The position numbers and the translations under genes were made by a program. A model generated the notes under the pieces. It worked only from the letters and a program-made list of their open reading frames with translations. It ran no database searches and was not told the origin of the DNA. A stretch of 64,000 bases of DNA. Origin: Candidatus Hodarchaeota archaeon. GTDB taxonomy: Archaea > Asgardarchaeota > Heimdallarchaeia > Hodarchaeales > Hodarchaeaceae. Location of the stretch: assembly GCA_016839785.1 (NCBI GenBank), contig JAEOTQ010000177.1, positions 30,550 through 94,549 of the forward strand, written 5' to 3'. Below, one piece after another: positions 1,392 to 44,098 of this stretch; position 1 is the first letter of the stretch; every line of letters starts with the position of its first letter.

Positions 1392-1451
1392 TAATAAGAA
1401 CCTTCAGTTAATTTTTACACGTACAAATTAAGGCCGTTTATGTTCTATTCA

Positions 1452-1811: not shown

Positions 1812-1814
1812 GTT

Positions 1815-4067: not shown

Positions 4068-4187
4068 AATAATTACCTTAAAACGCCTTTTTTACATGAA
4101 TTCTATTCTTACTATCATTTCGTTCATTATTAAGTAGCTTGATTACTTTGATAATTCTTTGTCTTTTGTCATATCTTCCATAAAACT

Positions 4188-5353: not shown

Positions 5354-5779
5354 TCTAGAGAATACGGGAAGACCACTTCGCTTATTTAATAAAAGAATTT
5401 CTCGAACATTGAGGTGGATACCAGCAATATCTTCTTGATTCTTATCTCTATCATCTATTTCCCGCTGGACGATAATTTATAACACCTCAATCTCTTTATA
5501 ATCATGATACTTCATAGTAATTCCAATGAAGCAAAAGTTCTTACTTCGCATTTTGGTAGTATTGCTCCTTCAATTATAACCTATCTAAATAAAACAAGCT
5601 TTCATAATAAATAGAAATACGGTAACGAAAATGGAAAAATTAGTAAAAAAATAGTTTTAGAATGAATTTCGGAGTCTTCTAACTTAAAATCTGTGTAAAG
5701 TGATTGAGAATTTCCGCACACTAAGTCGACGCTTAACCTGATTAAGAATTATATATTTGAGCAAAAAATCTTATCAAAT

Positions 5780-7994: not shown

Positions 7995-9257
7995 GTGGAA
8001 AAGATGGGATATACAGTTATTGAAAAAATCATTGCTGATCATTCCTCCGAGGAAGTGGCCCCAGAAAAAATTGTCTGGTTAAATATTGATGTAAGATCCG
8101 CACGTGATTTTGGTGGTGCAAATGTAGTCAAAAATCTTGAGAAAAACTATCCAGGGGAATCTCATGTTGCTGACCCAACGAAGACGTTCTTTACATTCGA
8201 TTGTGTCGTTCCAGCTAACAATTTAGGATATGCTGAAAATCAACAAGTAGCCAGGGTATTTGCTCGAAAGAATCTACCCCGAAATAATTTGTACGATGTA
8301 AACGCAGGTATTGGTTCTCACATAATGATTGAAAAAGGTATTGCGGTTCCCAATAGCACCGTTGTTGGAACTGATTCGCATTTAAATATTCTTGGAGCAA
8401 TAGGAGCATTCGGACAAGGGATGGGTGATCAGGATATTGCCTTTACATTTAAAACAGGGAAAACTTGGTTCGAGGTTCCTTATACAATGCGAGTTACCAT
8501 TGATGGTACTCCAGCTAAGAATTCTTCAGCTAAAGATGTTACTTTAGGGGTGTTAGAGAAATTAGGTTCGAAAGGCGCATTAGGTAAATCAGTAGAATTT
8601 TACGGAGCTACTATCGATGCTCTCGATTTAGCAGGACGTATTACTCTTGCGAGTCAAGTCACTGAAATGGGCGGAATAATTGGATTAATTACTCCCAATA
8701 GCTCAATCATAGAATACTGTAAGGAAAGAAGTGGTCGTGATTTTCCGATTCACAAAGCTGATGACGATGTTGATTATGTAGAGGATATACATTATGATTT
8801 TGAAGGGATTGAGCCACGAATTGCTTTACCCCCGAATCCTGCCAATGTGAGACCAGTCGCGGAGGTTACAGGTATCAAAGTGGATTCTGTCGTCATTGCT
8901 TCCTGCACAAATGGCCGATACGAAGATTTTGCTATCGCAGCCAAGATTCTCAAGGGTAAAAAAGTTCATCAAGATGTGATGATGAAAGTTGTTCCTGCAA
9001 CCCAAGAAGTTTACGGTCAATTATTACAAAATGGGCTTGTGGATCTATTCTATCAATCTGGTGCTATTATAAGTAATCCCGGATGCGCAAGTTGTGCAAG
9101 TGGGCAAATTGGGATGACTGGTGACGGGGAAGTGCAGGTTACTACAGGAAATCGAAATTTTACAGGAAAGCAAGGTAAAGGAGATACTTATCTCGCATCC
9201 CCAGCTACTGCAGCAGCTTGTGCCCTTGCAGGAGAAATCGTTGTCCCGGAACTATAA
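7995..9257 (+). CDS. leuC: Aconitase-family dehydratase large subunit (3-isopropylmalate/homoaconitate dehydratase, LeuC/HacA type)
   Basis: 420 aa with GTDSH, the cluster-ligand region SCTNGR, and CASCASGQ. This is the typical short archaeal-type large subunit. The start may be GTG 7995 or ATG 8004. Confidence 0.85.
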   Translation: MEKMGYTVIEKIIADHSSEEVAPEKIVWLNIDVRSARDFGGANVVKNLEKNYPGESHVADPTKTFFTFDCVVPANNLGYAENQQVARVFARKNLPRNNLYDVNAGIGSHIMIEKGIAVPNSTVVGTDSHLNILGAIGAFGQGMGDQDIAFTFKTGKTWFEVPYTMRVTIDGTPAKNSSAKDVTLGVLEKLGSKGALGKSVEFYGATIDALDLAGRITLASQVTEMGGIIGLITPNSSIIEYCKERSGRDFPIHKADDDVDYVEDIHYDFEGIEPRIALPPNPANVRPVAEVTGIKVDSVVIASCTNGRYEDFAIAAKILKGKKVHQDVMMKVVPATQEVYGQLLQNGLVDLFYQSGAIISNPGCASCASGQIGMTGDGEVQVTTGNRNFTGKQGKGDTYLASPATAAACALAGEIVVPEL

Positions 9258-9277
9258 TTCAATAGGAGAAGAACATT

Positions 9278-9811
9278 ATGAAAAAATCTACAACTCTAAC
9301 TGGAAAAGCAATTGTGATAAAGGATAGTCAAGGTACAGGTATTGATGACATAGATACAGATATGATTTTCCACAACAAACACTTACATATCACCGATATA
9401 AATGAAATGGGTCAATATGCTTTTGGAAATTTGGAGGGATGGAAAGAGTTTTCCTCATTGGTGACAGAGAATTCTATTTTAATTGTTGGTAAGAATTTTG
9501 GTGCAGGATCTTCACGACAACAAGCTGTTGACTGTTTCAAAGCTTTAGAAGTTATGTTAATTATAGGCGAATCCTTTGGAGCTATTTATAAGCGAAATGC
9601 CATCAATTCCGGAATGCCATTATTAACAGCTCCTGAAATTATGAAAACTGCAATTGAAACTGGAGATCTACTAAAAATCGATTTAACCACTGGGAAAATT
9701 TCATCTGAAACAAAAAAGTTACAATTCAGTAATATTACACCACTATCACAGGTACAGCTTGATATTTATTATGCTGGAAATCTATTTGAGTACGGAAAAA
9801 GTCTGGAGTAG
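9278..9811 (+). CDS. leuD: Aconitase-family dehydratase small subunit (LeuD/HacB type)
   Basis: 177 aa with GKNFGAGSSRQQAV, the swivel-domain motif. It is immediately downstream of the large subunit. Confidence 0.8.
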   Translation: MKKSTTLTGKAIVIKDSQGTGIDDIDTDMIFHNKHLHITDINEMGQYAFGNLEGWKEFSSLVTENSILIVGKNFGAGSSRQQAVDCFKALEVMLIIGESFGAIYKRNAINSGMPLLTAPEIMKTAIETGDLLKIDLTTGKISSETKKLQFSNITPLSQVQLDIYYAGNLFEYGKSLE

Positions 9812-25285: not shown

Positions 25286-25924
25286 ATGAGTATCTTTGAG
25301 GTAAAAGACGATTTGTATAAGATCTGTCTTGTCGGAGATGGAGGAGTCGGTAAAACGGCTATTGTTGAAAGGTTTTTAGGAAAAGGTTTCGCTTCTACTT
25401 ATAATTTGACCATTGGAACCAATATATGTACTCATACCGTGGATGTGGATGGTACAAAAGTCAAATTTCAAATTTGGGATTTAGCAGGACAACAACGGTT
25501 CGAATTCGTCCGTTCCATGTTTTATCGGGGATCTCATGCTATTGTTATGGTTTTTGATGTGACCAATCCAAATTCCCTTTCGAATTTACATGAATGGAAA
25601 AATGAAATTCTACAAAATCTGGACCATAGACACCATGCCATCCCCATTGTGCTATTAGGTAATAAAAGTGATCTGCAACAAAAATTACTTATCGATCAGG
25701 ACGCAATATCGAACTTCAAAGATGAATTACAGATGGAGTTCCACGCAGATTCAACCGCCTTTATGTACACAAGTGCTCGCTCAGGAATGAATATCGAGGA
25801 GTCATTTGAAGTACTAGGTCTATTGCTTTTAAAGAAGAAGAATCCACAATCCTATATTGATAAAACTTCAGGGAAATTTAAAATTCCAACGAATCTTCAT
25901 TCCATTGGACCCTCGAATGCATAA
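25286..25924 (+). CDS. Ras-superfamily small GTPase, Rab/Ras-like
   Basis: G1 GDGGVGKT, G2 Thr in TIGT, G3 WDLAGQQ, G4 GNKSD, G5 SAR. There is no C-terminal CaaX. This type is characteristic of Asgard archaea. Confidence 0.85.
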   Translation: MSIFEVKDDLYKICLVGDGGVGKTAIVERFLGKGFASTYNLTIGTNICTHTVDVDGTKVKFQIWDLAGQQRFEFVRSMFYRGSHAIVMVFDVTNPNSLSNLHEWKNEILQNLDHRHHAIPIVLLGNKSDLQQKLLIDQDAISNFKDELQMEFHADSTAFMYTSARSGMNIEESFEVLGLLLLKKKNPQSYIDKTSGKFKIPTNLHSIGPSNA

Positions 25925-29209: not shown

Positions 29210-30511
29210 ATGAATTATAACCTTTTTTACTATATTGTTGAATCGAGTCAACTAGATAATTTGATAAGGAACAGAGTGATTTATTGTAGATGGTCGTGTC
29301 TCAATTTGAGGATGAGGAGAATTATTATCTACTGGTTGGTATTCTCCCTAATTCTGGTTGTTGGATACCTTTTTTTACAAGTACTACATAGTATTAATTT
29401 TTGGGAGAATCTTGGCATTATTCCCGCTCCCGATCATATTGAGCCATTTTCTACAATCGGCATGACTTTTTTTACCATGGCCCTCGTTGTAGGGTGGAGT
29501 ATCATCTTTAGTGGGGTGATCTGGAAGTTGATAGGTCATATATATTCACCCTCTCAACCAATATTTCGACTAATTTTCGAATTATCTCAGTCTTGGATAT
29601 CGCTTTCTTTTTTTGAGATTTGTATATTCATCAATTTCACTGTTCTTTCAACTCTTGTCACGAATAGTAAAAACACCTTTCGTCCTACAGGTCAAATTTT
29701 GCTAGAAGTAGCTTGGATCAACTTTGTCCTGGTTTGTCTGTTTTATACTTTCATAGGAATTCAAGCAGCACGAAAAAACCTTGAAGTAACCCGTTTCGTC
29801 AGTAAACTAGCTTATGATTTCCTTCAAATATTATTTATGACCTTTGAAGGAGGACTCATCTTCCTTCCTTTTGGGTTGTTCGAGTTTCTGATTAACATGA
29901 GTAATTACCCAGTACTTTTGCTTTCCTTACTTATCTATAGCTACAATGCATTCTTGGCTGCATTTATTATTGAATTCTTAATCTGGACTGATGAGAGGGT
30001 GAAAAAGGAAGAGGCAGCAAAAAATGCTAAGACTAGCTTTCGAATCTTCATCTTAGACACTTCAATGATTGTTTTTCCCCTGTTATTGATAGCCACTTTC
30101 ATGGTTTATCCATTTTATATTCCTCTTCAATCCGTACCGGTATGGATTTTTCTAGTTGAGTTTTTGGTCATATTCTCAATTTTTGCATCAATTCTTTATA
30201 GTTTTGGTAAGATAATAGCTCCCAGGTTATCCAAAGACAGTTTATCAAAGATTCAAATTCTGAAATATAGATTTGAAGTATTGCTCGCAACTAGAGGAAC
30301 TATGTTTAATTACCCTACTCCCATCGATATTTTTTTAGGAGGAGAATTAACAGAAAAGATCGAACATCGCTGGGAAAAAGTTTCACTAAAGATGGCGTGT
30401 GGGCAATGTTATCATGTATTTGAAGCTGAGGCTCTCAGAAAGGGAACAAATATTAAACCTATTCCATGTGCATTTTGTGGTTCATTGGCCACAACCCCAG
30501 TATGGGAATAA
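29210..30511 (+). CDS. Polytopic membrane protein with a C-terminal C4 zinc ribbon
   Basis: At least 8 hydrophobic helices, then CGQCYHV...CAFCGS at the C-terminus. Confidence 0.5.
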   Translation: MNYNLFYYIVESSQLDNLIRNRVIYCRWSCLNLRMRRIIIYWLVFSLILVVGYLFLQVLHSINFWENLGIIPAPDHIEPFSTIGMTFFTMALVVGWSIIFSGVIWKLIGHIYSPSQPIFRLIFELSQSWISLSFFEICIFINFTVLSTLVTNSKNTFRPTGQILLEVAWINFVLVCLFYTFIGIQAARKNLEVTRFVSKLAYDFLQILFMTFEGGLIFLPFGLFEFLINMSNYPVLLLSLLIYSYNAFLAAFIIEFLIWTDERVKKEEAAKNAKTSFRIFILDTSMIVFPLLLIATFMVYPFYIPLQSVPVWIFLVEFLVIFSIFASILYSFGKIIAPRLSKDSLSKIQILKYRFEVLLATRGTMFNYPTPIDIFLGGELTEKIEHRWEKVSLKMACGQCYHVFEAEALRKGTNIKPIPCAFCGSLATTPVWE

Positions 30512-30517
30512 ATTGCT

Positions 30518-31021
30518 CTAATAAGTCTCCCGATGCACAAGTTTTTCCAAATTTTTTCGGTTCGATTCTCGAGTATGATCAGGATAACCCACCGCAACTA
30601 TTGCTAACACACGTAATTTCTCGGGGATATTCAGCATGGATTTAATTTCTTTCTCAATTTGCGGTTTATTAATAACTCCTGCCCAACAGGTACCCAAACC
30701 CAAGGCGTGAGCCATAATCATAAATTGCATAGTGGCAAGAGCGGTATCTGATTGATGGTAATCCTGATGGATAGTCGGGTCAGTGAGTGGAATAAAGATA
30801 ACAGGACTTTCTGCAACAAATTTAGCATAAGGATGGATAGCTGCCATTTTATTTCGAATTTCAGAGTCAGTTACAATCATGAACTCCCAAGGTTGCTTAT
30901 TTGATGCGGAGGGAGCCCATTGAGCAGCTTCAAGACATTTCTGAATTTTTTCTTCTTCTACAGGCGTTGATTTATATTTTCTAATACTTCGACGGGTTTT
31001 TAGTAATTCTAAGACGTCCAT
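30518..31021 (-). CDS. Nitroreductase-family NAD(P)H-flavin oxidoreductase
   Basis: TRRSIRKY near the N-terminus, then SASNKQPWEF. These are typical FMN-binding nitroreductase motifs. Confidence 0.8.
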   Translation of the reverse strand: MDVLELLKTRRSIRKYKSTPVEEEKIQKCLEAAQWAPSASNKQPWEFMIVTDSEIRNKMAAIHPYAKFVAESPVIFIPLTDPTIHQDYHQSDTALATMQFMIMAHALGLGTCWAGVINKPQIEKEIKSMLNIPEKLRVLAIVAVGYPDHTRESNRKNLEKLVHRETY

Positions 31022-31041
31022 TATAATTCCTTCTAGTTTTT

Positions 31042-32013
31042 CTATGTTACTTTCCAGCTCTGCAATTCACGTAAAGAAACATTTGCCCCGCAGAGAATGA
31101 TACCTATCTTTTCGAAGGGGGATAAATCAAACTTTTTCTCAAGAAGGGCAGCAACGATACACGAAGTTGCGGGTTCCACCAATATTTTTTCTTCCATTAG
31201 TAAGAACTTTAGGGCTTTTAGTGCCTCCTCATCAGTCACTGTTTGCATATCATTAACACTTACTTTTATGCGAGCCAACGTATCTTCTGTTGTTTGTTGA
31301 GCTCCTAAAGTTTTGGCAATACTAGTGATTGCAGGTAGATGCTCTATTTTTCCTGATTTGAAACTTTGGGTTACCGCGTGAGCACCAATTGTTTCTACTC
31401 CATAAACATGGATTTCAGGTTTCATTTGTTTAGCAACCATCCCCACTCCACTAATTAGCCCACCTCCACCGACTGATAAGAATATAGCGTCGAGATCTGA
31501 TTGTTCATTCAACATTTCAACTGCTATCGTTCCTTGTCCTCTAACTACAGCCACATCGTCAAACGCATGGACATAGGGTAACTGCATTTTTTCCGCATAT
31601 TCTTGCGCTTTTACATCCGCTTCATCCCATGATGACCCATGGAGAACGGGAGTTCCTCCCCAAAATTTAATTGATTCAATTACTTCTTTTCCTGAATTAG
31701 CTGGAAGATAGACGATAGCAGGGATTTTAAGCTCATTACAAATGTAAGACACAGCTAAACCATGATTTCCTCCACTAGCTGTTACCACACCTTCCTCGCA
31801 ATTCTCTAGTGAGAGTATTTTTGAACATGCCCCTCTTACCTTGAAGGATCGCGTGGGTTGGAGATATTCTAATTTGTAATAGACTTTTTTATTAAGTAAT
31901 ACCTCTAATGCATATCCACGAATGATAGGACTTCGTAAAATATATGGCCGAATCGTAGAAAGAGTTTTTTGGACTTCTTGAAGGGTTAAGCCCGCATAGA
32001 GATTCTTCGCCAT
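31042..32013 (-). CDS. PLP-dependent threonine/serine dehydratase (fold-type II, catalytic domain only)
   Basis: YLQPTRSFKVRGA (PLP-lysine motif) and the Gly-rich loop SVGGGGLISG. There is no C-terminal ACT domain. Confidence 0.8.
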   Translation of the reverse strand: MAKNLYAGLTLQEVQKTLSTIRPYILRSPIIRGYALEVLLNKKVYYKLEYLQPTRSFKVRGACSKILSLENCEEGVVTASGGNHGLAVSYICNELKIPAIVYLPANSGKEVIESIKFWGGTPVLHGSSWDEADVKAQEYAEKMQLPYVHAFDDVAVVRGQGTIAVEMLNEQSDLDAIFLSVGGGGLISGVGMVAKQMKPEIHVYGVETIGAHAVTQSFKSGKIEHLPAITSIAKTLGAQQTTEDTLARIKVSVNDMQTVTDEEALKALKFLLMEEKILVEPATSCIVAALLEKKFDLSPFEKIGIILCGANVSLRELQSWKVT

Positions 32014-32015
32014 GG

Positions 32016-32807
32016 TTATCCCTTTTTTGAGTAATATTTCTTTGCGAGGATGGCAGCTCCATAAGCTCCATTCATCTGAGGCTCTGCTGGAATTTTAAGC
32101 TCTACTTCTAATTCTCTTTCCAGCATTGTTCTTACTGCAGGATTTAACGCTACTCCACCTGTTAGAGATATTTCTGGGTGAATACCTACACGAGCGGCAA
32201 GCGCTATGATTTTACTCACGATGGAAGTATGAATTCCTGCAATAATATCATCACGATCCGCCCCTTGATTTATTCTAGAGATTACTTCAGATTCAGCAAA
32301 TACCGTGCATGTACTTGAGATTTTACTTGGTGATGTTGATTTAAGCCCCATAGGCCCAAAGTCTTCTATCGAGACTTCCAAGGCACTAGCCATTACTTCC
32401 AAAAATCTTCCTGATCCAGCAGAACATTTATCATTCATCTCAAAATCTTGAACCTGACCCTTTTCATTGACACGAATTACTTTTGAATCCTGTCCTCCAA
32501 TATCAATTATTGTTTGAATTGAAGGGTCAGAGTGATGAGCTCCTACAGCGTGACAGGTTATTTCAGTTATAGTTTTGTCAGCATTCTCCACTAATTTCCG
32601 TCCATACCCCGTTGATATGATATAATCAATTTTTTGTTTACCAAAAAAGTCTTGAGCATTATTTAGCAGGTTTCTTGCAATATTACCTGGTGCATAGCCC
32701 ACTTTTTTTAATTGAGAAAAATTATTTTTATTAGAAGGATCTTTGGTATTTAGGACCACAATTTTTGCAGTAAGTGAACCAATATCTATACCTGCGACGA
32801 GTGCCAT
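32016..32807 (-). CDS. BadF/BadG/BcrA/BcrD-family ATPase (2-hydroxyacyl-CoA dehydratase activator, HgdC-like)
   Basis: Acetate/sugar-kinase-fold phosphate motifs GIDIGSLTAKIVV, TGYGRK and DIGGQDSKVI. The cluster-bridging region NDKCSAGSGRFLE. Confidence 0.7.
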   Translation of the reverse strand: MALVAGIDIGSLTAKIVVLNTKDPSNKNNFSQLKKVGYAPGNIARNLLNNAQDFFGKQKIDYIISTGYGRKLVENADKTITEITCHAVGAHHSDPSIQTIIDIGGQDSKVIRVNEKGQVQDFEMNDKCSAGSGRFLEVMASALEVSIEDFGPMGLKSTSPSKISSTCTVFAESEVISRINQGADRDDIIAGIHTSIVSKIIALAARVGIHPEISLTGGVALNPAVRTMLERELEVELKIPAEPQMNGAYGAAILAKKYYSKKG

Positions 32808-32974
32808 TCGTTTTATCAGTCCTAGACAATTCTTGCATAAATTTTCCTTTGATCAGGTCGTTGCAATTTAGCATTATAAACTAAGTCGTGTGCTAATAAT
32901 ATTTGATGAGGAGGATTTTGGTTAACGAATTAATGGAAAGAAAATATTGGAAAAAATTTTAAAAATGAATTTAC

Positions 32975-34936
32975 TCAACAATAAATGCATAAATCATTAG
33001 CCCGTATATGCTTGGAGCAATACCACTTTTGACAGTTGTTACACTGCCGAAATGTTGAGTAATAGTCAACTTGGTTATTTGATTGATCAAGTGCTTTCCG
33101 TAATGAGGTGATCATTTTGTCTCGCTCAACATTTGACACAATCAATTCATCTAATTCATTAAGAAAGGTAAATGAATCAAGAGAGGTAATTTGTTGCTCT
33201 GAATCAGTTATTTGTTTCAATTTTGTAAATAGTAGATCGATATTTGACATTTTTTCCTGATCTAATTGTTCCCATCCTTCTGGAAACGACTCTATAAGTG
33301 TTAAAACTTGTGAAAAGTAAATTAATTTACGCCATCCAATTGCATCATCGTATTTATACAGAAAATGTTTGCATAAAGCATGATTGCACTTAAAAACTAG
33401 GGAAATTTTGTCTATAGCTTTGTTATACTTTATACTACTCGGAATAGGAAGTAATTTTAATAAAATCCGATAAGAGTTTAATAGATCTGAATGTAGCTTT
33501 TTGGCTGATGTGGTAATGGAGGAACGTTGGTCAGTGAATTTCTCTATCTGTTTATCAAGTCGTTCCTTCAGTTCTTGAACAAAAACTGTATTGTCCTGAT
33601 CTTCGGTTACTTGTTCTTGGAGCATTGAAATAGTCATCACTGACCTCTCTAATTGACTAGCTAAAATTCGTAAATCGGCTGAGTGAAGGAACAGTGAATC
33701 TGTATCAGATAAAGATTGTAGGACTTGGAACTCTGATAAAGCTTCAGAAATGACTTCTGTTTCAACAACTGACTGAATAACCGGTAGTTGAGCCAGAATT
33801 GGATCCAATGGTAAAAATAAATCGTTTACTTGCTGTCGGATATCTTGTATAGTAGCAAAATCTTCCTCGGTTCGAATTTTCTGAGGTTGAATGACCAATA
33901 TTTCTTTTCTAGAGTGTTTTTCTCTTCCAATCCTCCCCAAGATGGCGCTGTTACTGATTAAGTATTCAAGCGCCATATGTAAAACTTCTGCTGGTAACTT
34001 CATACGCTTTCGCAAATAACCAATTGAAATTTCGTTTGCACCAAAATTACGTGCTACACTCATTATCTCGTTAACTAAGGAATCAAGTGTTTCGGTGTCA
34101 AAAATATTTAGGCTTTGCATCTCTTCTTCGGTTATTTCCCCTGAAAATTCTTCACGTAATTCTGATAGGATTTTTTCTCGTTCAGGATTTTTAGTTTCGG
34201 GAACATAAACATTAAACAAAATAGGATCTGAGATATTCGCGTACATCATCTGTAATTTTTCATCGACGTTCAAATCTACTCCTGATATCCTCTGAGTAGT
34301 AGCAAATGCCAAATCTCTACTTGGATTAAACGCGACATTTAGCTGTAAATTCTCATTTCCATAAACCATACACGTGGATACTCCTCCAGCTGCCACTTCC
34401 ATATCGATACGTTCTACAAGGGTTAATAAGGAAGTTATTGAAATTGCGAATAAATATTCATCAATTTGTTGAGTTTCAGATATCACCCAGATTGGGTAAC
34501 CTTCCGAAGCAACTAAGCCAACCGTTTCAAATTTCGTCTTATAACCAAGTTCTATAACATGTTTCATCAATATTTTCATGAAGTCATTTGAATCAAGGTT
34601 TACATCGTGTATCAAAGTCAAATAGATCTTGGGATAGGGAGTAAGTAATTTGATCGATAATGCTCTGGAACGTCCAGATATTGTGAGGGTTCTCCAATTT
34701 GATAGCTGTAACTCATTAGTAAGGATTTGTGTAAGGATAGACCATGCTCGATCAAAAATTGTAAGATATTTCTTATCGACTCTGACTTTATTCACAAATA
34801 TCTTTGATTTCTCATCTTCAATGGAAAAAAGAAACGCCGAATCAAGAGGTGAATCTGAAACCTCAACCATGGTATGCTCCAGGGCATTTTCCAGCAGATC
34901 AAACCATTCTAAAGGACTGCTCAAAAATTCCACCAT
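32975..34936 (-). CDS. Large hypothetical protein: two N-terminal Roadblock/LC7-like domains, a long helical region, and a C-terminal zinc ribbon
   Basis: Residues ~60-110 and ~130-220 (TVGLVASEGYPIWVISETQQIDEYLFAISITSLLTLVERIDMEVAAGG...NVAFNP) show Roadblock-like alternation. The C-terminus has CNNCQKWYCSKH...CIYC. Confidence 0.4.
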   Translation of the reverse strand: MVEFLSSPLEWFDLLENALEHTMVEVSDSPLDSAFLFSIEDEKSKIFVNKVRVDKKYLTIFDRAWSILTQILTNELQLSNWRTLTISGRSRALSIKLLTPYPKIYLTLIHDVNLDSNDFMKILMKHVIELGYKTKFETVGLVASEGYPIWVISETQQIDEYLFAISITSLLTLVERIDMEVAAGGVSTCMVYGNENLQLNVAFNPSRDLAFATTQRISGVDLNVDEKLQMMYANISDPILFNVYVPETKNPEREKILSELREEFSGEITEEEMQSLNIFDTETLDSLVNEIMSVARNFGANEISIGYLRKRMKLPAEVLHMALEYLISNSAILGRIGREKHSRKEILVIQPQKIRTEEDFATIQDIRQQVNDLFLPLDPILAQLPVIQSVVETEVISEALSEFQVLQSLSDTDSLFLHSADLRILASQLERSVMTISMLQEQVTEDQDNTVFVQELKERLDKQIEKFTDQRSSITTSAKKLHSDLLNSYRILLKLLPIPSSIKYNKAIDKISLVFKCNHALCKHFLYKYDDAIGWRKLIYFSQVLTLIESFPEGWEQLDQEKMSNIDLLFTKLKQITDSEQQITSLDSFTFLNELDELIVSNVERDKMITSLRKALDQSNNQVDYYSTFRQCNNCQKWYCSKHIRANDLCIYC

Positions 34937-34937
34937 A

Positions 34938-35360
34938 TTACATAAGTATTTTCAAATTATTAGTGAGTTTTTCAGCCAATAGATTAGCACTACCGTTAGG
35001 GTCAGTAATTACAAGAGTAATTACCTTTTCTGCGATTGAAATCGCAATATCCCGTGATTCACCCTGAACATGAATTAATCGGACTGTTTCTTGGCTTAGG
35101 GTGGATAATGTGCGGTCTCCTAACGATGTACTTGCACCGACAAGTGCGGCATACCGATTGGTTATACTCGCATCGGTAATCTCCTCTATCCCAGATCCTT
35201 CCCGAGAAAGAAGTATGATTGGTAGTCCTTCGGGGGAGGTGAGGGAAATCATCAGAACTTGCGAATTCTGTTCGAAAACTTCATTCAGAACTGGACGGAA
35301 CCCTTCAGATGAATTGTACAATACAAGACCTCGAACTTCTCTTCGAGAACCTAAATACAC
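34938..35360 (-). CDS. Roadblock/LC7 (MglB-like) domain protein
   Basis: 140 aa with the pattern VLMISLTSPEGLPIILLSREG...NRYAALVGASTSLG...IHVQGESRDIAISIAEKVITLVITDPNGSANLL, matching the Roadblock alpha-beta-alpha layout. Confidence 0.5.
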   Translation of the reverse strand: MYLGSRREVRGLVLYNSSEGFRPVLNEVFEQNSQVLMISLTSPEGLPIILLSREGSGIEEITDASITNRYAALVGASTSLGDRTLSTLSQETVRLIHVQGESRDIAISIAEKVITLVITDPNGSANLLAEKLTNNLKILM

Positions 35361-35468
35361 ATGTTATTAAAATATTCTGACCCATGAATATTTGATAACA
35401 CCGAAATGAAATTACAAAGTTCATCTGATTAGCTTCAAAAAAAAAGGAAATTCAAATGGTGTAATTAT

Positions 35469-36521
35469 TTGTCTTCACTTATTACTAGCTTCTGGCAGGA
35501 TCGAGGTTTAAAATTTAAACTATTAGCGGTGATGTTCGTTGTCACTGCCATTCCCTTAACTTTACTTATGACTGTTTATAGTTTTTCAATCAATAATGTT
35601 ATTGATACTATAAAAACTGAATTTAGCGGAAATGCAGCCATAGGTGAATTCGTAGAAGCCGAATTTGTTGACATGATGTGGACTTCGGGTCTCGTCTATA
35701 TAACTGGTTTATTTGGAGGTTTAGCAATAGTTTTTCTATATAGTCGATCTTTAACAAAGCCTATCTTAGATCTAGCTGAGTCAGCGGATGAAATAGCTAA
35801 CAGAGATCTCTCATTGGATAAATATTCAAGCTTAGAGAACCCACGTGGAGATGAAATTGGAAAAGTACAACATTCATTCCTTTTGGCAATCAAGAACCTT
35901 CGTAATATAATTTCTACAAATCAAGGATCAGCAACAAATCTCGCTGCATCTACGCAAGAAATTGCTGCTACTGCGGAAGAGGTGAGTGCTTTAACCGAGG
36001 AAATTGCGGCAACGATTCAAGCGATTTCTGTTGGTGCTTCAAAACAAAGTGAACTAGTCTCTAACGGTTTAAAAAACCTCGATGATATGGCTAAAGTTGT
36101 AGATTCCGCATTAATGAATATAAATAAAACGCTAGAGGTCATCGAGGAAATTGCTAACCAAACAAACTTACTGGCCATTAATGCGGCAATTGAAGCAGCA
36201 CGAGCTGGGGAATTTGGGAAAGGATTTGATGTTGTAGCGGACAATGTAAGACGATTATCCGAAGAAACACGAGTAAATGCAGTCGAAATTTCCCAAATAA
36301 CGCTTGAAATCACTTCTCAAATCAGAATCTCAACTGCAAGTCTTCGTGACCATCTTCAGGAACTTGCTGTCCAAGCTGAAGAGTATAGCGCATCAAGTGA
36401 GGAAGTGGCCGCGAGTACTGAAGAACAGTCCAGTGCAGTAAGTCAGTTGACATCTTCCTTACAAGAACTCACAAATTTGAGCACACAAATGACAGAATCC
36501 ATCGATCAATTCAATCTTTGA
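35469..36521 (+). CDS. Methyl-accepting chemotaxis protein (short MCP: 2 TM, HAMP, signalling domain)
   Basis: Two N-terminal TM helices, then the conserved signalling hairpin [21 protein letters not shown]...[30 protein letters not shown]. Confidence 0.85.
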
Positions 36522-36536: not shown

Positions 36537-37079
36537 CTACTCAGTGTGTGTGAAATGCCATAAAGTATAGGTATTCCCTGATCCTGAATGAATCGCGGAT
36601 TCCTTACTAATTTGCTGAGTATCAACCAACGATTCAAGAACATTGACAAGGACATCACTATCAATTTCCAATCCTTTTGCATTTAAAGACTGGAGAATTC
36701 TTGTTTTAGAAAGTTTTTGATTGTTGAATTGAGATATTAACATCTTTTCAATTTCCTCTAATGAAATAGATTTACTTTCATTCTGTGAAGATTTTATATT
36801 ATTTTTATAGACTTGGTTCAGATTTCGCCCTTCTATTAAATAGGAGGAAAGGTAATTTGCTAATATCGCAGCCGTTCCATCACAGGGAATCCTTAACGCC
36901 TTACCATACGATATTTGGTCTTCTTCATTTTTCCGAGCTTCTTGAATTTCGATTGTAGCCCGTGTCATTCCCCATTGAGAATGGTTCGCAGGGGCCCATA
37001 ACTTAATATTTATACTTCGTTGTTTAGATATCTGTATTCTTTCAAATTTAACTGGACCAGAAGAGGATTGATTAACCAA
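36537..37079 (-). CDS. Hypothetical protein
   Basis: 180-aa ORF with no recognised motif. Confidence 0.35.
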   Translation of the reverse strand: MVNQSSSGPVKFERIQISKQRSINIKLWAPANHSQWGMTRATIEIQEARKNEEDQISYGKALRIPCDGTAAILANYLSSYLIEGRNLNQVYKNNIKSSQNESKSISLEEIEKMLISQFNNQKLSKTRILQSLNAKGLEIDSDVLVNVLESLVDTQQISKESAIHSGSGNTYTLWHFTHTE

Positions 37080-37353: not shown

Positions 37354-40300
37354 ATGAGAGACTTTTCTGAGGATAATCACTCGAATGCAGATTATTTGAA
37401 GAAGAGGTTACACCAAGGTCGACTGTTGATTCAATCGATAAAAACTCGCAAGTTACGGTCTGAACTAAAGTCAATCAAATCTCATACACGAACTAATATT
37501 CGCTCACAAACTCAAAAACTTACTAAATTTTCATGGCAAAGGAGTACCAGACAAAGAGGAGCAGGAATCATGCTCTCCTGGGGATTAGCCAGACGAAATG
37601 TCACTAGATCGAAATATCGTTCTTTTTTGTTGATTTTTGGTATTATGCTAACGGTTGCTCTTGAAACAGGTATTGTAATATCTGTTGATACGCTCTATGA
37701 TGATTTTGTTTTTGACCATCGAAATCAAAACTACACCGATATTACAGTCCATCCTATTAATTGGCAGAATCTCGCGAATATGACGCAAATGGCACAGAAA
37801 GTTGCAAAAACCCCAGGGGTGGTAAGAGCCAGTCCAGTATACTATACAAACATAGATAATCTATTTGGTCAAGCAGTCAAGAAGAGTAACATACTGATTT
37901 ATGGAATTGACTCAAAAACACACCCTGATTTTCGACGAATCAATATTACATTAGGTGAACGGAGTTTAAAGAATAATCGGATGATTATTTCCGATACATT
38001 GTATGATCAAGGTGGGTTAACTATAGGTGAGAGTGTTAATCTTAATGATTTAGGCCCCGAATACAAATCCCAAGAGATTACTCTCGGCGGAGTAATGGAT
38101 GATGAACCATTTTTCGGGAATAAAATCGGTTATGCATTCATTCTTCTTGATATAGAGCTTCTATATAATATTGTTTATGAAAATCAACTTATTTCTTTGT
38201 TATCAAGTGAAATTGATGTAGAAATCAATAGTATAGTAGATATCAAGAAAATTAGTGAAAATATCAAAGATGCTGTAGGGTTAAATTACTATGTTTTTTC
38301 AGAAAAAGATATTTCAGAGATTGAAGCATCAGGAATACGTGCCTATCAAACTGCAATGAATTTAGTTATCATGGCGTCATTCGTTGTGGAATTTTTGTTT
38401 ATTACGAATGTTCTCGCAATTTCAATTCGTGATAGATCAAAAGAATTCGGTATCATAAGAGCTATTGGGGGGAAAGCATACCAATTGATTGAATCTGTTG
38501 CATATGAAATCCTCATTTATTCCGCTATTGGCTGTACTATAGGAGTAGGAGTTGGAATTGCCCTTTCTTCTGTGTTAACAGGTGTAATGGATGATTATTA
38601 TGTGGGTCTTGAGTTTCAACAGCTTTCTATTCATACTACCTCACTTATTGTGACATATCTCTCAGGAGCCCTTGTTGCATTAATTTCGGGTCTTTATCCC
38701 ATCTTTTTAGCTATTTCCATGCCTGTAGTTCAAAATATTCATTCAAGGATGAGATCTGGATCATCTTTTGATACTTTAACTAATTCTTGGAAATATACCG
38801 TAGGGACTGGATTTCTTCTAGCCCTTGTTGGTTTTATTCTGCAATATTATGTAGGCCCTTCGCGCTTTCTTGATTTTGAAATATTATCTCTCCATTTTGT
38901 TGCAGTTCTTATGATTTTTATTGGAACTGTATTTCTAGAAATAGGAATCCTTGTGTTTCTACCAAAAATTGCCATGAAATTATTAATTGGATTCAGTTTC
39001 ATTACTCGTACGATTTCCACGAGAAATATTGCACGTGAATTTCAAAAATCGCTTTTTACAATAATGACGTCTGCTATGGCATTAACTTTCATAATTGTTG
39101 TCGGATTGATTAGTGCTGCTGTTATATCTGGTGTACCTGCATATTATGAAAATCAATGGGGAGCAATTGATCTTGTAGCGGAGACAAGAGATGCTGAACT
39201 CCTTCCTACAAGTACCACAAACCGAATAGATGGTATGAGTGGAGTTGTTCGGAGTTCATTCATACAAGAAGTGAGAACTGAGGTTGATAACACATCTAGT
39301 TATGTTTATGGTGTCGATCCCTTCAAGTATGTTTATTTTAGCGAACCACCTGTTGATAGTTTATCATCCTTCCAACCGTATGAACTACTTAGTCAATCAA
39401 ATGTTAACAGGACGAATGGTGTAATTTCTCATATCCTATATCAAAAACTTCGAGTTCCGCTAGGATCTAATATTTCTTTAAAGATCGCAACTAATTCAAC
39501 CGTAAATAATTCAATTGTAAAGAATTCAACCGTAGGTAATTCAACCGTAAAAATTAGAACAGTAAATGTAACTCTGACCGCAGTAGTTAAAGCCAATATA
39601 TTCTTGGGGAATGGGGAGTATTTATATATTCCCAGTGCACAATTTCGTGAATTTTTCAACTCGACTGTTGCAAAGTGGTTTCTATGTGATGTGGAGGAGG
39701 ATGAGGTTCAAAGAGTAAAGAGGAATCTAGAGTTTAATTTTCCAGAATTTAAAGAAGATGGCGTAGTTTCCATTACTTTTTTCACAGATATGATGAGAGA
39801 GAGTTTGATCTTTCAGTCAGCGATTTTCCAAGTCTTATTTTTTGAATCATTTATTTTAGCTGCCATTGCTCAATTTGTTTGCATTTTAGTATCAACTTTG
39901 CGAATGGAGCGTGAAATTGGAATAATGCGAAGCTTGGGATTGAATCGGAGAGGAGTTTTCGGAATATTTATGACAGAATCAATTGCATTAGGCATTTCAG
40001 CATTATTTGTTGGATTGTTTGATGGAATACTCGGTGCTGTACTGCTTGCGGATTATATCTCTGCATCGATTCCAATTTTTGTCTCGTTCCCTGCCACAAG
40101 TTTAATCATCTGGATGAGTATTTCCTTTCTAATAACAATTCTTAGTACCCTTCTCCCTTCATATCGATCAAGTCGTAAAAATATTGTCGCAACGATCTCT
40201 GGGCGTCCTATGGTAAAGGGATATGTCGATAAAGATCCATACCGTTTAAGATCGGAATTAAGAGCGGTTGAAAGCCCATGGCTTACCTCATATGGTTCTT

Positions 40301-41577
40301 CAAATCCAACTAATCCCTTTATGCATTATTCAGATGACCCTCTATCAGAATCCAGTCGAGTACGGAGAAGACAAAATCAAGTATCGTCTGCAATATCTCA
40401 AAGTAGTATCCTTCGGTTTATTCGGAATAATATTCTACCAGTTCAGACGATATTTTTGTTATTAATGGCAATAATTACGTTCAATTATATTCTTGATGAA
40501 AACATAATAATGCGAGGATTAAATATTTTTGACACCTTTATTAGATTTACCATGTCCTTAACAGAATATATTGATCCTCAGTATCAAGTTACATTCCTTA
40601 ACATTAATCCAGTTCTGGTTATTGTTGGACTTGCTGCTATAACCCCCATTGCGCATTATTTAACATACAAACAAGGCCCCGAATCTCTCCTTATTTCTGT
40701 TCTTGGAAGTATATTCTGGGCTTTCCTAGGGATAATAGTTATTATTTTTTCAATGTTAGTAACGGCTTCCCTTGTAATGATAATTCTAATACCAGTTCAG
40801 GAGAGAATTGGAGATTTTTCGACTCCAAATACGGTAGTGCTACTCGAATTTTCTAAACTTGGCTCATTACTTCTAGTTGGTGTCATTTTCTTTTATCTCT
40901 TTCAAAAATTTTGGTGTTTTATGACTATCCGTGGGATAGAACCAGAATTATCATACAGAGGACATCTTACTCTTGTTAAAACATATGGTTCAAGGGGAAA
41001 TATGGGATTCATATTTTTGCTTTTAGGTCATATCTTACTCCAAACTGTCTTATACTCAATTGCTGGCCCATTTTCATTGTCCGATCCGATATATCCCGAT
41101 CTATCCACAACCCCTCCGATTGGACCAATTGAATTCTTAATTTATTCTATTTATGAAGTTGGATATTACCTCTTACTAATCATATATACCATTGTACATT
41201 TTGGAAAATCGGTTAATTTAGCAAGGAGTGGTTCAGTCCAATATAAACCTGTTAAAGTGCAAATCCCTGCAGAAACTATTGTTAAAAGTCAAGAACTGGC
41301 AAATAAAATTCTAGTTGACAATGTAAAAGGCATTTCTCTAAACAAAAAAGGTATTCAACTATTTAGTGAGGTGATCAATGGCCAGAAACTTCTTTTTTTC
41401 CAAGAAAACGATAGTAAAATACCAGTAGCAATGAACTATGCACTCCATTTTCCAAAAGAGTACGTACCATTATCCGAAGAACATCCTACTCAAATAAAAG
41501 TACCAAATGCTGAACAAATCGAGCGGTTCGTACATCTAATGCAAGATTTCGAATTTAGAGAAGATGTAACTTCATAA
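37354..41577 (+). CDS. Giant (1407 aa) FtsX/MacB-like permease-domain membrane protein with an extra C-terminal polytopic region and a conserved cytoplasmic tail
   Basis: Two FtsX-like units (TM, large extracytoplasmic domain, then 3 TM with the conserved RxxE(F/I)G(I/T)(I/M)RAIG motif, seen as RSKEFGIIRAIGG and REIGIMRSLG). Additional TM helices in residues ~1000-1300. There is no adjacent ABC ATPase. Confidence 0.6.
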   Translation: MRDFSEDNHSNADYLKKRLHQGRLLIQSIKTRKLRSELKSIKSHTRTNIRSQTQKLTKFSWQRSTRQRGAGIMLSWGLARRNVTRSKYRSFLLIFGIMLTVALETGIVISVDTLYDDFVFDHRNQNYTDITVHPINWQNLANMTQMAQKVAKTPGVVRASPVYYTNIDNLFGQAVKKSNILIYGIDSKTHPDFRRINITLGERSLKNNRMIISDTLYDQGGLTIGESVNLNDLGPEYKSQEITLGGVMDDEPFFGNKIGYAFILLDIELLYNIVYENQLISLLSSEIDVEINSIVDIKKISENIKDAVGLNYYVFSEKDISEIEASGIRAYQTAMNLVIMASFVVEFLFITNVLAISIRDRSKEFGIIRAIGGKAYQLIESVAYEILIYSAIGCTIGVGVGIALSSVLTGVMDDYYVGLEFQQLSIHTTSLIVTYLSGALVALISGLYPIFLAISMPVVQNIHSRMRSGSSFDTLTNSWKYTVGTGFLLALVGFILQYYVGPSRFLDFEILSLHFVAVLMIFIGTVFLEIGILVFLPKIAMKLLIGFSFITRTISTRNIAREFQKSLFTIMTSAMALTFIIVVGLISAAVISGVPAYYENQWGAIDLVAETRDAELLPTSTTNRIDGMSGVVRSSFIQEVRTEVDNTSSYVYGVDPFKYVYFSEPPVDSLSSFQPYELLSQSNVNRTNGVISHILYQKLRVPLGSNISLKIATNSTVNNSIVKNSTVGNSTVKIRTVNVTLTAVVKANIFLGNGEYLYIPSAQFREFFNSTVAKWFLCDVEEDEVQRVKRNLEFNFPEFKEDGVVSITFFTDMMRESLIFQSAIFQVLFFESFILAAIAQFVCILVSTLRMEREIGIMRSLGLNRRGVFGIFMTESIALGISALFVGLFDGILGAVLLADYISASIPIFVSFPATSLIIWMSISFLITILSTLLPSYRSSRKNIVATISGRPMVKGYVDKDPYRLRSELRAVESPWLTSYGSSNPTNPFMHYSDDPLSESSRVRRRQNQVSSAISQSSILRFIRNNILPVQTIFLLLMAIITFNYILDENIIMRGLNIFDTFIRFTMSLTEYIDPQYQVTFLNINPVLVIVGLAAITPIAHYLTYKQGPESLLISVLGSIFWAFLGIIVIIFSMLVTASLVMIILIPVQERIGDFSTPNTVVLLEFSKLGSLLLVGVIFFYLFQKFWCFMTIRGIEPELSYRGHLTLVKTYGSRGNMGFIFLLLGHILLQTVLYSIAGPFSLSDPIYPDLSTTPPIGPIEFLIYSIYEVGYYLLLIIYTIVHFGKSVNLARSGSVQYKPVKVQIPAETIVKSQELANKILVDNVKGISLNKKGIQLFSEVINGQKLLFFQENDSKIPVAMNYALHFPKEYVPLSEEHPTQIKVPNAEQIERFVHLMQDFEFREDVTS
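39493..39567 (+). repeat. 5 x 15-bp in-frame tandem repeat (aattcaaccgtaaat-like) encoding NSTV(N/K/G) units
   Basis: The units aattcaaccgtaaat, aattcaattgtaaag, aattcaaccgtaggt, aattcaaccgtaaaa and attagaacagtaaat are seen directly. They encode N-S-T sequons in an extracytoplasmic loop of the giant protein. Confidence 0.8.
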
Positions 41578-42040: not shown

Positions 42041-42712
42041 GTGACTAATTTGGTAATTGAGAGGCTTTACGAAGCGTTGAAGAAATCTGTAGAAGAATAT
42101 AAACCCGAAAAGGCTAAGAAGATTACTAAAGAACTCTTAGAAGCCCAGGTTGACCCCTTAAAAGTGTTAGATGAAGTACTGAATCCAACAATGGAAGAAA
42201 TAGGGGAGAAATTTGATAATATGGACATATTTTTACCTGATCTTATGGGTGCTGCTGAAGCAATGCAAGCGGCTACCTCCATCTTAACAGAACAGATTAA
42301 GAAAAGTTCCACTAAACCCACTGAATCGAAAGGGAAAGTTGTACTAGGAACAGTACTTGGAGATATTCATGAAATCGGGAAAAATATTGTTAAAATTATG
42401 CTAGAAACCTCAGGATTTGAAATATTTGATTTAGGAAAAGATGTTCCTTCTCTTAAGTTCATTGAAAAAGCTGAAGAAGTTAATGCAGATGTGATAGCTT
42501 TATCAGCACTTATGACAACTACAATGCATTCTCAGAGAGAAGTTATTGAACTATTAGAAGCGTTAGGAAAGCGTGATAATTATATAGTTCTTGTTGGTGG
42601 TAATCCAACTAGTGAAAATTGGAAAAAAGAGATAGGAGCTGATGGATGGGCTGAAACTGCAGTCGAAGCTACAAAGCTCATAACGAAAATGATTAGCGAG
42701 AAGGTGAGATAG
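42041..42712 (+). CDS. Methyltransferase cognate corrinoid protein (B12-binding, MtmC/MtbC/MttC-like)
   Basis: N-terminal helical cap, then the B12-binding signature GDIHEIGKNIV (DxHxxG), then SAL and LVGG. GTG start. Confidence 0.85.
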   Translation: MTNLVIERLYEALKKSVEEYKPEKAKKITKELLEAQVDPLKVLDEVLNPTMEEIGEKFDNMDIFLPDLMGAAEAMQAATSILTEQIKKSSTKPTESKGKVVLGTVLGDIHEIGKNIVKIMLETSGFEIFDLGKDVPSLKFIEKAEEVNADVIALSALMTTTMHSQREVIELLEALGKRDNYIVLVGGNPTSENWKKEIGADGWAETAVEATKLITKMISEKVR

Positions 42713-44098
42713 ATGGGCACTCCTCCTTGGCGTATCAATGAAGTACTAGATAGAGCACAAAATGGACCAATCTGCTTAGAAAAGGATTTTGATTCTAACC
42801 TCTTTGTACCCGAACTTAAGAGAGTAATTAAGGAGTATGATATTTGTTTTGATAAATTGACACCCGTACCTTCTGATGATACTCTAGCAGATAGTATTTG
42901 GAAAGCCGCTATGGATTTTTACCTCACGGTGGGAACTCTTTGCACTGATACTTATCGTAGAATTGTTTTTACAGAAAATGAAATAAAGGAAGCTCTAGGA
43001 AATTTTCCTGGAAGGTTCACATTGGGCTTTGGACGTGATTCAAGAGAAATTACTGGTAGACAAATCGAAGATAAACGAAGACCTTTCTGTCTCTTTTCAC
43101 CTGACATCACATGTGACGAAGATCTTTTTGTTCCCATGAGTATGGCATATTTACAGGAACCTCTAGCTGATGGTGTTTGTGCTCCAATTCTTGATGAAAT
43201 TGAGGGTATGTCAATTCGATCTGGTTCTCCATCCGAAATAAAGGGATCAGTCGCGCATGCCATGATGTTTAGAGAGGCTGCAAGACGAGTTGGTCGTCCT
43301 GGAATTTTTCTTAAGAGTGTAGGAACCGCAGAGTCTGACGCAGCTCAAATCGCAGCCAGCAATCCTGAATGGGGAGAAAGATTAACTGATGGACGATTTG
43401 TGGCTAGTGTAACAGAACTGAAAGTGGATAATTCACTCTTGAACAAAATGGTACATTTTCATACATATGGTTGTTTTGTAGGAGCACTTACGGGTCCTAT
43501 TTTTGGAGGATTTGCTGGGGGCCCTGAAGGTACTGCTATTGTTGGCCTTGCTTATCATTTACAAGGATTACTTGTGAATCAAGCACATTTCTTAAATTAT
43601 TTTCCGTTTCACTTGAAACACACTTGTAATACAATGCGTGAGCTTCTTTGGGTAATCTCTATCACCTATCAAGCCTTATCTCGGAACAGTAATTTAATCT
43701 CTCTGTCTAATGGATTTACTGCAGCTGGACCATGTACCCCCATGGTCTTAAGAGAGGCCGCAACTCACTCACTTGTAAGTGTTGTTTCCGGTTCTAATCT
43801 TTGGGAAATAGCTGTCGCTAAGAATAGGAATAAGAACTTCGCCACACCCATGGAAGCTAGGATTGCCTGTGAAGTCGGTTGTGGAGCAGCAAAAGAAAGG
43901 ATTTCAAGAAGTGATGCGAATGAGATTGCGCTAGCTCTTCTTAAAACTTATGAAGAAGATATCGAGAACGCACCACTAGGGAAGAGCTTTCGTGATTGCT
44001 ATAATATACGAAAGATTAAACCTTCAGTAGAATATATGGATCTCTTCAATAGAATGAAAAAAGAACTAAAGGACAATGGTGTTCCATTCGTATATTAA
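42713..44098 (+). CDS. MtmB-family (monomethylamine:corrinoid methyltransferase-like) protein without pyrrolysine
   Basis: Blocks shared with Methanosarcina MtmB as I remember it: CTDTYRRIVFTENEI, GRPG, PIFGGFAGGPEGTAIVGLAYH, AAGPCTPMVLREAA, TPMEARIACEV, APLGKSFRDCYNIRKIKPSVEYM...KELKDNGVPF. The ORF is continuous with no in-frame TAG. The stop of the corrinoid gene abuts this ATG. Confidence 0.75.
   Translation: MGTPPWRINEVLDRAQNGPICLEKDFDSNLFVPELKRVIKEYDICFDKLTPVPSDDTLADSIWKAAMDFYLTVGTLCTDTYRRIVFTENEIKEALGNFPGRFTLGFGRDSREITGRQIEDKRRPFCLFSPDITCDEDLFVPMSMAYLQEPLADGVCAPILDEIEGMSIRSGSPSEIKGSVAHAMMFREAARRVGRPGIFLKSVGTAESDAAQIAASNPEWGERLTDGRFVASVTELKVDNSLLNKMVHFHTYGCFVGALTGPIFGGFAGGPEGTAIVGLAYHLQGLLVNQAHFLNYFPFHLKHTCNTMRELLWVISITYQALSRNSNLISLSNGFTAAGPCTPMVLREAATHSLVSVVSGSNLWEIAVAKNRNKNFATPMEARIACEVGCGAAKERISRSDANEIALALLKTYEEDIENAPLGKSFRDCYNIRKIKPSVEYMDLFNRMKKELKDNGVPFVY

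Follow-up and report, generated by a model that had tools for sequence, protein, structure and literature searches.

Of the archaea known so far, Hodarchaeales count among the nearest relatives of eukaryotes. In a 64,000-nucleotide (nt) stretch of DNA from a Candidatus Hodarchaeota archaeon (contig JAEOTQ010000177.1 of GenBank assembly GCA_016839785.1, hereafter the window), two abutting genes on the minus strand encode a small protein resembling the Roadblock/LC7 family and a 653-amino-acid (aa) partner, raising the question of what such a pair might do. The Roadblock fold was established for the small protein and for the second domain of the large protein, and the two genes were found side by side at every locus where this could be seen. 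Whether the pair constitutes a bicistronic Hodarchaeales-type operon encoding a heteromeric Roadblock complex, and thereby a platform for a GTPase encoded elsewhere, is in our view an evenly balanced question.

Conservation of the gene pair

The small-gene stop codon (34940..34938) and the large-gene ATG (34936) meet in the sequence ATG-TAA-T-ATG, a spacing of 1 nt. A first-pass annotation of the window had described two co-oriented, abutting open reading frames (ORFs), and their coordinates, the 1-nt junction and the C-terminus of the large protein, which reads FRQCNNCQKWYCSKHIRANDLCIYC, were all verified. The 140-aa small protein of that annotation corresponds to an ORF that does exist (34938..35360, minus strand, GTG start), but nearly all homologues are 127-129 aa in length and align from residue 14, equivalent to a TTG codon at 35321, and a GAGGT motif resembling a Shine-Dalgarno sequence precedes this TTG. 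Given the homologue lengths and this motif, translation most likely starts at TTG 35321, which would yield 127 aa in place of 140. A TATA-box-like element, TATTTTAATA, would if used place the beginning of transcription downstream of the GTG, which also favours the TTG start. No further paralogues of the pair were found within the window.

Database searches returned 66 homologous clusters (90% identity) for the large protein, nearly all of 640-660 aa, and 82 homologous clusters from the same kinds of source for the small protein, so that both ORFs are, on the strength of these homologues, real genes. The large-protein homologues are named either 'hypothetical protein' or, by the Joint Genome Institute (JGI), 'predicted regulator of Ras-like GTPase activity (Roadblock/LC7/MglB family)', and their named sources are metagenome-assembled genomes of Hodarchaeales, Hodarchaeota and Heimdallarchaeota together with a few bins that bear the names of other Asgard phyla. 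When 1.84 billion representative proteins were searched with a profile, there were 28 matches only, among which 8-9 are diverged relatives of full or near-full length (518-708 aa); the few of these that have a named source are again Hodarchaeales-type bins. An iterated word-indexed family search that included deep relatives added one more core-type fragment (P0175) and no new lineages. Judged by the sequences retrieved, the family is real, small and lineage-restricted.

The first-pass annotation had raised the matter of co-occurrence across Asgard genomes, and wherever upstream DNA is present the pair is kept without exception. The small gene lies directly 5' of the large gene, and co-oriented with it, at all species-representative loci having upstream DNA (16/16). 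In the four deep relatives examined, whose large proteins are 19-24% identical, a gene encoding 119-132 aa is situated 14-33 nt upstream of the large gene (4/4); the products of these upstream genes can be aligned with the small protein over their whole length (19-33% identity), and three of the four match the Pfam family Robl_LC7 weakly. Every neighbour other than the pair itself differs in these four relatives. A two-gene module conserved this strictly represents a defined candidate complex in a lineage with many small GTPases.

Within the core family the pair is embedded in a longer conserved block consisting of p180, the small gene, the large gene, BcrAD/BadFG, PALP and nitroreductase. One alternative is that the pair forms part of a larger operon with the BcrAD/BadFG-type activase, the pyridoxal phosphate (PLP)-dependent enzyme and the nitroreductase, and regulates or assembles a metabolic unit. 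The small, large, BcrAD and PALP genes, usually with that for the nitroreductase, are co-directional in every core locus reaching that far, and large-to-BcrAD gaps are ~20-65 nt in core loci other than the window. In the window, however, T-tracts follow the large gene and BcrAD comes only after a spacer of 167 nt, in which a TATA-like TTTATAAT occurs, and all four deep relatives keep the pair while being without these three genes. The upstream p180 and FtsX genes are also kept in most core loci, so that the whole looks like order-level synteny. We regard the larger operon as very unlikely and, because the four deep relatives are without it, the p180-to-nitroreductase block was treated as apparent synteny and not as part of the module.

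Roadblock domains of the two proteins

Searched against Pfam, the small protein matched Robl_LC7 (PF03259) with an E value of 4.4e-4 and 20.4 bits, under the 23-bit gathering cut-off, and only eight of 34 members of the small-protein family did so at E <= 0.01. This score is a near miss and not a contradiction of Roadblock identity. A PDB sequence search with a shallow profile of the small protein's close relatives (A1/A2 stage) gave nothing significant, and a profile to which four deep relatives had been added (A5) gave 16 PDB matches, every one of them a Roadblock/LC7 protein aligned over ~80 residues. These included 7f8f (best, E 0.0024), LC7b (E 0.0045), 3l7h, Roadblock3 of MK-D1 (9jue, E 0.011) and DYNLRB1/2. 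The small protein is by these profile matches a divergent Roadblock/LC7 protein, as the first-pass annotation had supposed.

The full large protein was modelled with AlphaFold2 from 46 homologues (predicted local distance difference test, pLDDT, 78.5; predicted template modelling score, pTM, 0.44). In the model both N-terminal domains have a Roadblock topology, with the helix first, and not that of a longin. The earlier expectation of two Roadblock/longin-like domains in the first ~220 residues is in this way retained for two Roadblock-topology units extending to ~215 and dropped for longins. A first, shallow profile of domain 2 (A1/A2 stage) gave no significant result in a PDB search and became specific once deep relatives had been added, the resulting profile (A6) matching the Robl_LC7 crystal structure 7f8m with an E value of 0.0018. 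The central helix of this domain (160-183, including E175, R176 and E180) is nearly invariant, being 85% identical among distant core members, and G146, W150, E175, R176 and E180 are invariant through the deep relatives. Domain 1 is weakly conserved, with ~30% identity among distant core members, and its sequence profile found no match in the PDB. Paralogy of the three Roadblock units was considered, but a common origin was not demonstrable by sequence; the hhalign comparisons were non-significant, with an E value of 0.073 for domain 1 against domain 2.

Foldseek comparison with the PDB, in which matches refer to the whole large-protein model and the aligned query residues are not specified, yielded MglB, Prometheoarchaeum MK-D1 Roadblock3, MglC, LAMTOR, EGOC, Rag C-terminal domains and LC7 (E 5e-4 to 6e-3, probability 1.0, target template modelling (TM) score 0.5-0.66). 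The large protein had previously been likened to Ragulator/LAMTOR or DENN scaffolds. Although MglB and LAMTOR do appear among the structural matches, no DENN fold and no LAMTOR-specific similarity were found, and the C-terminal half matches nothing solved, so this analogy was not borne out.

The distribution of conserved residues suggested how the two proteins may associate. Among distant core members, identity is 62% for domain 2 and, measured against the window's copy, 59-66% for the small protein, with the winged helix that follows conserved to a similar degree (64%), whereas it is only 27-42% for domain 1 and the C-terminal half. Invariant residues of the small protein (R69, L80, G81 and R83-T87) and of domain 2 (E175, R176, E180 and V181) are located on the central helix, mostly in its C-terminal half and in the segment after it. 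Crystal structures of Asgard Roadblock proteins indicate that the central helix's C-terminal half mediates dimerisation (PMC10933270). Since the small protein and domain 2 are alike in their conservation and carry their invariant residues on the dimerisation helix, a heterodimer is proposed in which the small subunit would pair with domain 2 of the large subunit via the central helices, the canonical Roadblock dimer interface. That the two proteins form a complex appears to us fairly probable.

Winged helix, coiled coil and Cys/His site of the large protein

Beyond the Roadblock domains, the first-pass annotation had envisaged ~400 aa of helical sequence. Long helices are indeed present, but the model also contains a winged helix and a mixed beta/alpha region (Table 1). 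Pfam matches of the winged helix were scattered and sub-threshold (DnaB_2, PCI, Ribosomal_S25, MarR_2, HTH_52, FtsK_gamma and one DUF742), and its best match by profile in the PDB was eS25 (E 0.11). Assignment of the winged helix to DUF742 (PF05331) was not supported, with only one of 17 winged-helix segments matching at E 0.052.

A winged helix this well conserved allows the large protein to be read as a transcription regulator, in which the two Roadblock/PAS-like N-terminal domains and small subunit would sense or bind a partner, the winged helix would bind DNA and the coiled coil would dimerise, with the zinc tail possibly DNA-binding too. Consistent with such a role are the weak matches to MarR_2, HTH_52, DnaB_2 and FtsK_gamma, the basic nature of helix 2 and of the wing (three and five K/R residues, respectively), weak Foldseek matches of the N-terminal half that include tandem PAS/dCache sensor domains, and the resemblance of the Cys/His tail to nucleic-acid-binding zinc knuckles. 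However, the helix at the recognition position (316-328, AEVLHMALEYLIS) has two acidic and zero basic residues, no DNA-binding family was matched at its Pfam cut-off, the sensor-domain Foldseek matches have TM scores < 0.25, and the PCI- and eS25-type winged helices, to which similarity is equally weak, bind protein or RNA. A transcription regulator is considered unlikely.

Residues 401-653 modelled alone gave a pLDDT of 91.7 and a pTM of 0.85. The two long helices of the coiled-coil hairpin are antiparallel and occupy residues 413-495 in the full-length model, in which the sheet and its helices extend over 501-612. Comparison of residues 401-653 with the PDB gave no significant match either by Foldseek, where generic coiled coils came first at E 0.06, or by sequence profile, and the C-terminal model had no matches among viral models. 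Similarity of the C-terminal half to DENN, LAMTOR or NPRL proteins was sought and rejected, there being none in Pfam, in PDB sequence searches or in Foldseek searches of the PDB with the C-terminal model. Because 250 confidently modelled residues match no solved structure, this region possibly represents a new fold arrangement.

Eight Cys/His residues in this part of the protein (C517, C522, C632, C635, C640, H643, C650 and C653) show no variation within the core family and hardly any once deep relatives are included. This pattern points to a probable two-zinc site that would staple the tail to the sheet. The zinc ribbon of the first-pass annotation is recognizable in the conserved C-terminal Cys/His residues, although these are probably half of a larger site together with C517 and C522. 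Two deep relatives (P0155 and P0172) have lost the tail and its ligands, so that the family does not depend on this site. The tail shares the spacing C-x2-C-x4-C-x2-H with the middle of the AN1 zinc-finger profile, and 25 of the 46 family members showed weak similarity to zf-AN1 (PF01428) that stayed under the cut-off, with E 0.013 at best. Against a cut-off of 27.9 bits, the isolated tail scored 18.9 bits at best and whole proteins 14, and a splice of residues 513-531 to 629-653 scored 16.7 bits over profile positions 1-29, so that joining the two parts did not raise the score. Unlike AN1, the last ligands are C-x2-C and not H-x-C, and the putative first knuckle C517-x4-C522 lies ~110 residues upstream. 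A further candidate, the C-terminal CIYC as a CaaX prenylation box, was rejected: R, Q, K, T and N also occur at its middle positions, deep relatives run beyond the motif and one has C-x2-H there. From its variation, CIYC seems to behave as a metal knuckle.

Table 1. Position of the gene pair, of the predicted parts of its products and of neighbouring genes (numbering of the window)
Feature	Position	Strand	Remarks
Small Roadblock/LC7-type gene	34938..35321	-	127 aa from probable TTG start
Large-subunit gene	32975..34936	-	653 aa, ATG start
GAGGT, Shine-Dalgarno-like motif	35328..35332	-	6 nt 5' of TTG; putative function, from reading of the sequence
TATTTTAATA, TATA-box-like element	35365..35374	-	candidate element, from reading of the sequence
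T-tracts TTTTT, TTTTTT, TTTT	32941..32965	-	just past large-gene stop; archaeal-terminator-like, putative
Domain 1, residues 8-111	34604..34915	-	AlphaFold2 alpha-beta-beta-alpha-beta-beta-beta topology, pLDDT ~64-90
Domain 2, residues 116-215, EGYPIW motif	34292..34591	-	AlphaFold2 alpha1-beta1-beta2-alpha2-beta3-beta4-beta5; opening helix 116-132
Winged helix, residues 281-349, motif ISIGYLRKRMKLPxEVL	33890..34096	-	AlphaFold2 helix-beta-helix-helix-beta-beta topology
Coiled-coil hairpin, residues 402-495	33452..33733	-	two helices of ~33 and ~46 residues; AlphaFold2 pLDDT 88-96
Three-stranded sheet and helices, residues 496-612, C517-x4-C522	33101..33451	-	AlphaFold2 model; Cys conservation
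C-terminal Cys/His tail, residues 613-653	32978..33100	-	C632-x2-C635-x4-C640-x2-H643-x6-C650-x2-C653
Ras-family GTPase	25286..25924	+	212 aa
Multi-pass membrane protein (probable)	29210..30511	+	433 aa
BcrAD/BadFG-type ATPase, PALP PLP-dependent enzyme, nitroreductase	30518..32807	-	co-directional after large gene
Methyl-accepting chemotaxis protein	35469..36521	+	HAMP and MCPsignal
p180	36537..37079	-	180 aa
Multi-pass membrane ORF	37354..41577	+	1407 aa
B12-binding corrinoid protein	42041..42712	+	
MtmB-family monomethylamine methyltransferase	42713..44098	+	461 aa, directly after the corrinoid protein gene

Candidate GTPase platform, known systems and neighbouring genes

That Roadblock proteins can act on small GTPases is known from MglB-MglA, from Ragulator-Rag and from the conservon/Mfp system described below. 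In the complex proposed here, the small subunit would be a full-length Roadblock protein of the MglB/LAMTOR2 type with a C-terminal helix, and the large subunit would bring two more domains of that fold together with a winged helix, a coiled-coil hairpin and an alpha/beta module that the probable two-zinc Cys/His site would lock. The platform resulting from the pairing of the small subunit with domain 2 may bind, and then regulate or localise, a Ras-superfamily GTPase from elsewhere in the genome, with the winged helix, coiled coil and zinc part supplying oligomerisation or effector contact. Action of the complex on a GTPase, suggested by the fold family, is a tentative assignment to which we give slightly less than an even chance.

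The only Ras-superfamily gene in the window encodes a Ras-family GTPase (Pfam Ras, E 7.5e-43; Roc, Arf and Gtr1_RagA also match) and lies 7 kb from the pair on the opposite strand. This proximity had been remarked on in the first-pass annotation, and while the Ras-family gene is real its synteny is limited to close relatives, namely L002 and L003, which are 81% identical. Among the deep relatives, one (L021) has a convergent Ras-family gene directly downstream of the pair and another locus has one 6 kb away.

Several observations weigh against the proposed platform. No conserved GTPase gene was found near the pair, most core loci being without a Ras-superfamily gene within 8 kb, and the Ras genes at deep loci would be no more than expected by chance in GTPase-rich Asgard genomes. 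The pairing of the small protein with domain 2 was read from conservation patterns and the Roadblock-like character of domain 1 from its predicted topology, and hhalign comparison of the small protein with domain 1 (E 0.56) and with domain 2 (E 0.032) was not significant. Roadblock folds also work outside GTPase regulation, for example in the dynein LC7 light chain (PMC10933270).

An alternative in keeping with the last of these points is a GTPase-independent scaffold or adaptor, like dynein LC7 or SNARE-type longins, which would tether cytoskeletal or membrane partners via the coiled coil and zinc module. It would be consistent with the want of a conserved GTPase neighbour, with the presence of dynein LC7 light chains among the small-protein profile matches, with the tubulin-family gene that the L021 pair adjoins and with the Roadblock/longin roles unrelated to GTPases described in the literature (PMC10933270). 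The nearest structural neighbours, however, are MglB-type GTPase-activating proteins (GAPs) and Rag/Ragulator platform proteins, and the tubulin neighbour occurs at one locus only. The missing GTPase synteny is moreover uninformative, because Asgard small GTPase genes are usually not in operons with Roadblock genes (PMC10933270). We consider a scaffold of this kind rather unlikely.

As regards the proposed GTPase platform, comparison with known systems revealed partial resemblances. In the Foldseek comparison the large model matched MglB, the bacterial Roadblock GAP for the Ras-like GTPase MglA (1j3w, 3t12 and 6hjm), and its paralogue MglC (7ct3) best, with E values of 5e-4 to 3e-3, a probability of 1.0, alignments of ~120-127 columns and 11-16% sequence identity. 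Like MglB, the small protein is a full-length Roadblock protein with a C-terminal helix, and MglB-family Roadblock units act as dimers. Unlike MglB, which is a single-domain homodimer encoded beside mglA, no GTPase of the MglA kind is encoded beside the pair or in its operon, most core loci being without a Ras-superfamily gene within 8 kb, and the partner has two Roadblock domains plus ~430 residues. The Asgard Roadblock structures 7f8m, 7f8f and 9jue are closest by sequence profile, 9jue also being a top Foldseek match, and in them, as here, the dimerisation helix is the most conserved element. They are stand-alone homodimers of 94-131 residues, whereas the pair would be heteromeric and encoded by two genes, one subunit being a multidomain protein with Roadblock domains in tandem. 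Ragulator/EGO (LAMTOR2/3 and LAMTOR4/5; 5y3a, 5x6v and 6jwp) and the Rag C-terminal domains (6ulg), which were matched by Foldseek at a level similar to MglB, resemble the proposed complex in assembling several Roadblock units on one platform. Unlike Ragulator, the pair has no LAMTOR1-like tether, no fused or adjacent Rag-type GTPase and no sequence similarity, and Ragulator has no counterpart to the winged-helix, coiled-coil and zinc part.

The tri-longin RabGEFs (Mon1-Ccz1 and Fuzzy-Inturned/CPLANE) are similar in that one chain carries alpha/beta platform domains in tandem and these associate with another subunit, as is proposed here, and differ in having three domains and not two, in topology, which is of Roadblock type here, and in that the partner here is single-domain. 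Their Foldseek fit was poor (230-290 columns, TM ~0.17, root mean square deviation ~16 A), and the only Pfam trace of them was Intu_longin_1 in one deep small-protein relative (E 0.067). The b-b-a-b-b-b-a-a longin topology (a, helix; b, strand) of the longin GAP complexes FLCN-FNIP, NPRL2-NPRL3 and C9orf72-SMCR8 was not seen in the AlphaFold2 model. In the actinobacterial conservon/Mfp system (Roadblock CvnB/MfpD, DUF742 CvnC/MfpC and GTPase CvnD/MfpB), a DUF742 protein containing a helix-turn-helix (HTH) serves as guanine nucleotide exchange factor alongside a Roadblock GAP (PMC11343762, PMC13343842). Here Roadblock domains and a winged helix are fused in one chain, but there is neither a GTPase nor a histidine-kinase-like gene in the operon.

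A more elaborate version of the proposal, which strikes us as improbable, is an asymmetric three-Roadblock platform in which the small protein would sit on domain 2 with domain 1 alongside, coupling a GTPase of the lineage to an output module. It might be doubled by way of the coiled coil, and would make a counterpart, confined to Hodarchaeales, of eukaryotic platforms that are likewise asymmetric, for example Lst7-Lst4/FLCN-FNIP or Ragulator. If this were true, the archaea nearest to eukaryotes would have a novel class of GTPase regulators or effectors, whose output module, consisting of a winged helix, a coiled coil and a split two-zinc finger, would be without structural relative among solved proteins.

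No published description of the architecture of this pair was found in the literature and no eukaryotic counterpart was detected; the pair is best described as a lineage-specific new architecture of a well-known GTPase-regulator fold. Expectations should be modest: the Roadblock superfamily is large in Asgard archaea, with ~130 gene families, and often shows multidomain architectures peculiar to a lineage (bioRxiv 10.1101/2020.10.19.343400), and its domains are widespread in prokaryotes (PMC12962969). Asgard Roadblock genes are also rarely linked to anything informative (PMC10933270).

Some features of the genes surrounding the pair were also recorded. p180 has no Pfam match and a C-terminus that is winged-helix-like by eye; in most core-family loci it lies upstream of, and co-oriented with, the pair, directly adjacent in several, with 41-72% identity, and it is not present in the four deep-relative loci. 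The methyl-accepting chemotaxis protein gene lies between p180 and the Roadblock pair in the window, L002 and L015 only, other relatives having different inserts or none. The 1407-aa membrane ORF is located beside p180 in most core-family loci that reach it, and its counterpart in L001 (47% identical) matches Pfam MacB_PCD and FtsX. On the other side of the pair, the nitroreductase gene is absent from a few of the core-family loci reaching that far, and no dehydratase or reductase partner of the BcrAD/BadFG-type ATPase was seen nearby. The hydrophobic 433-aa protein has no Pfam match and ends in a zinc-ribbon-like CxxC...CxxC motif (CGQCYH...CAFCGS). At the L021 locus, a tubulin-family gene (446..1798) is followed by one for a 1389-aa protein without Pfam match (1810..5979), and the convergent Ras-family GTPase gene beside the pair lies at 8855..9406. 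Further along the window, the MtmB-family ORF is uninterrupted, has no in-frame amber codon and covers positions 3-449 of the 450 in Pfam MtmB; its product, encoded by an Asgard genome, is possibly an MtmB homologue that does without pyrrolysine.

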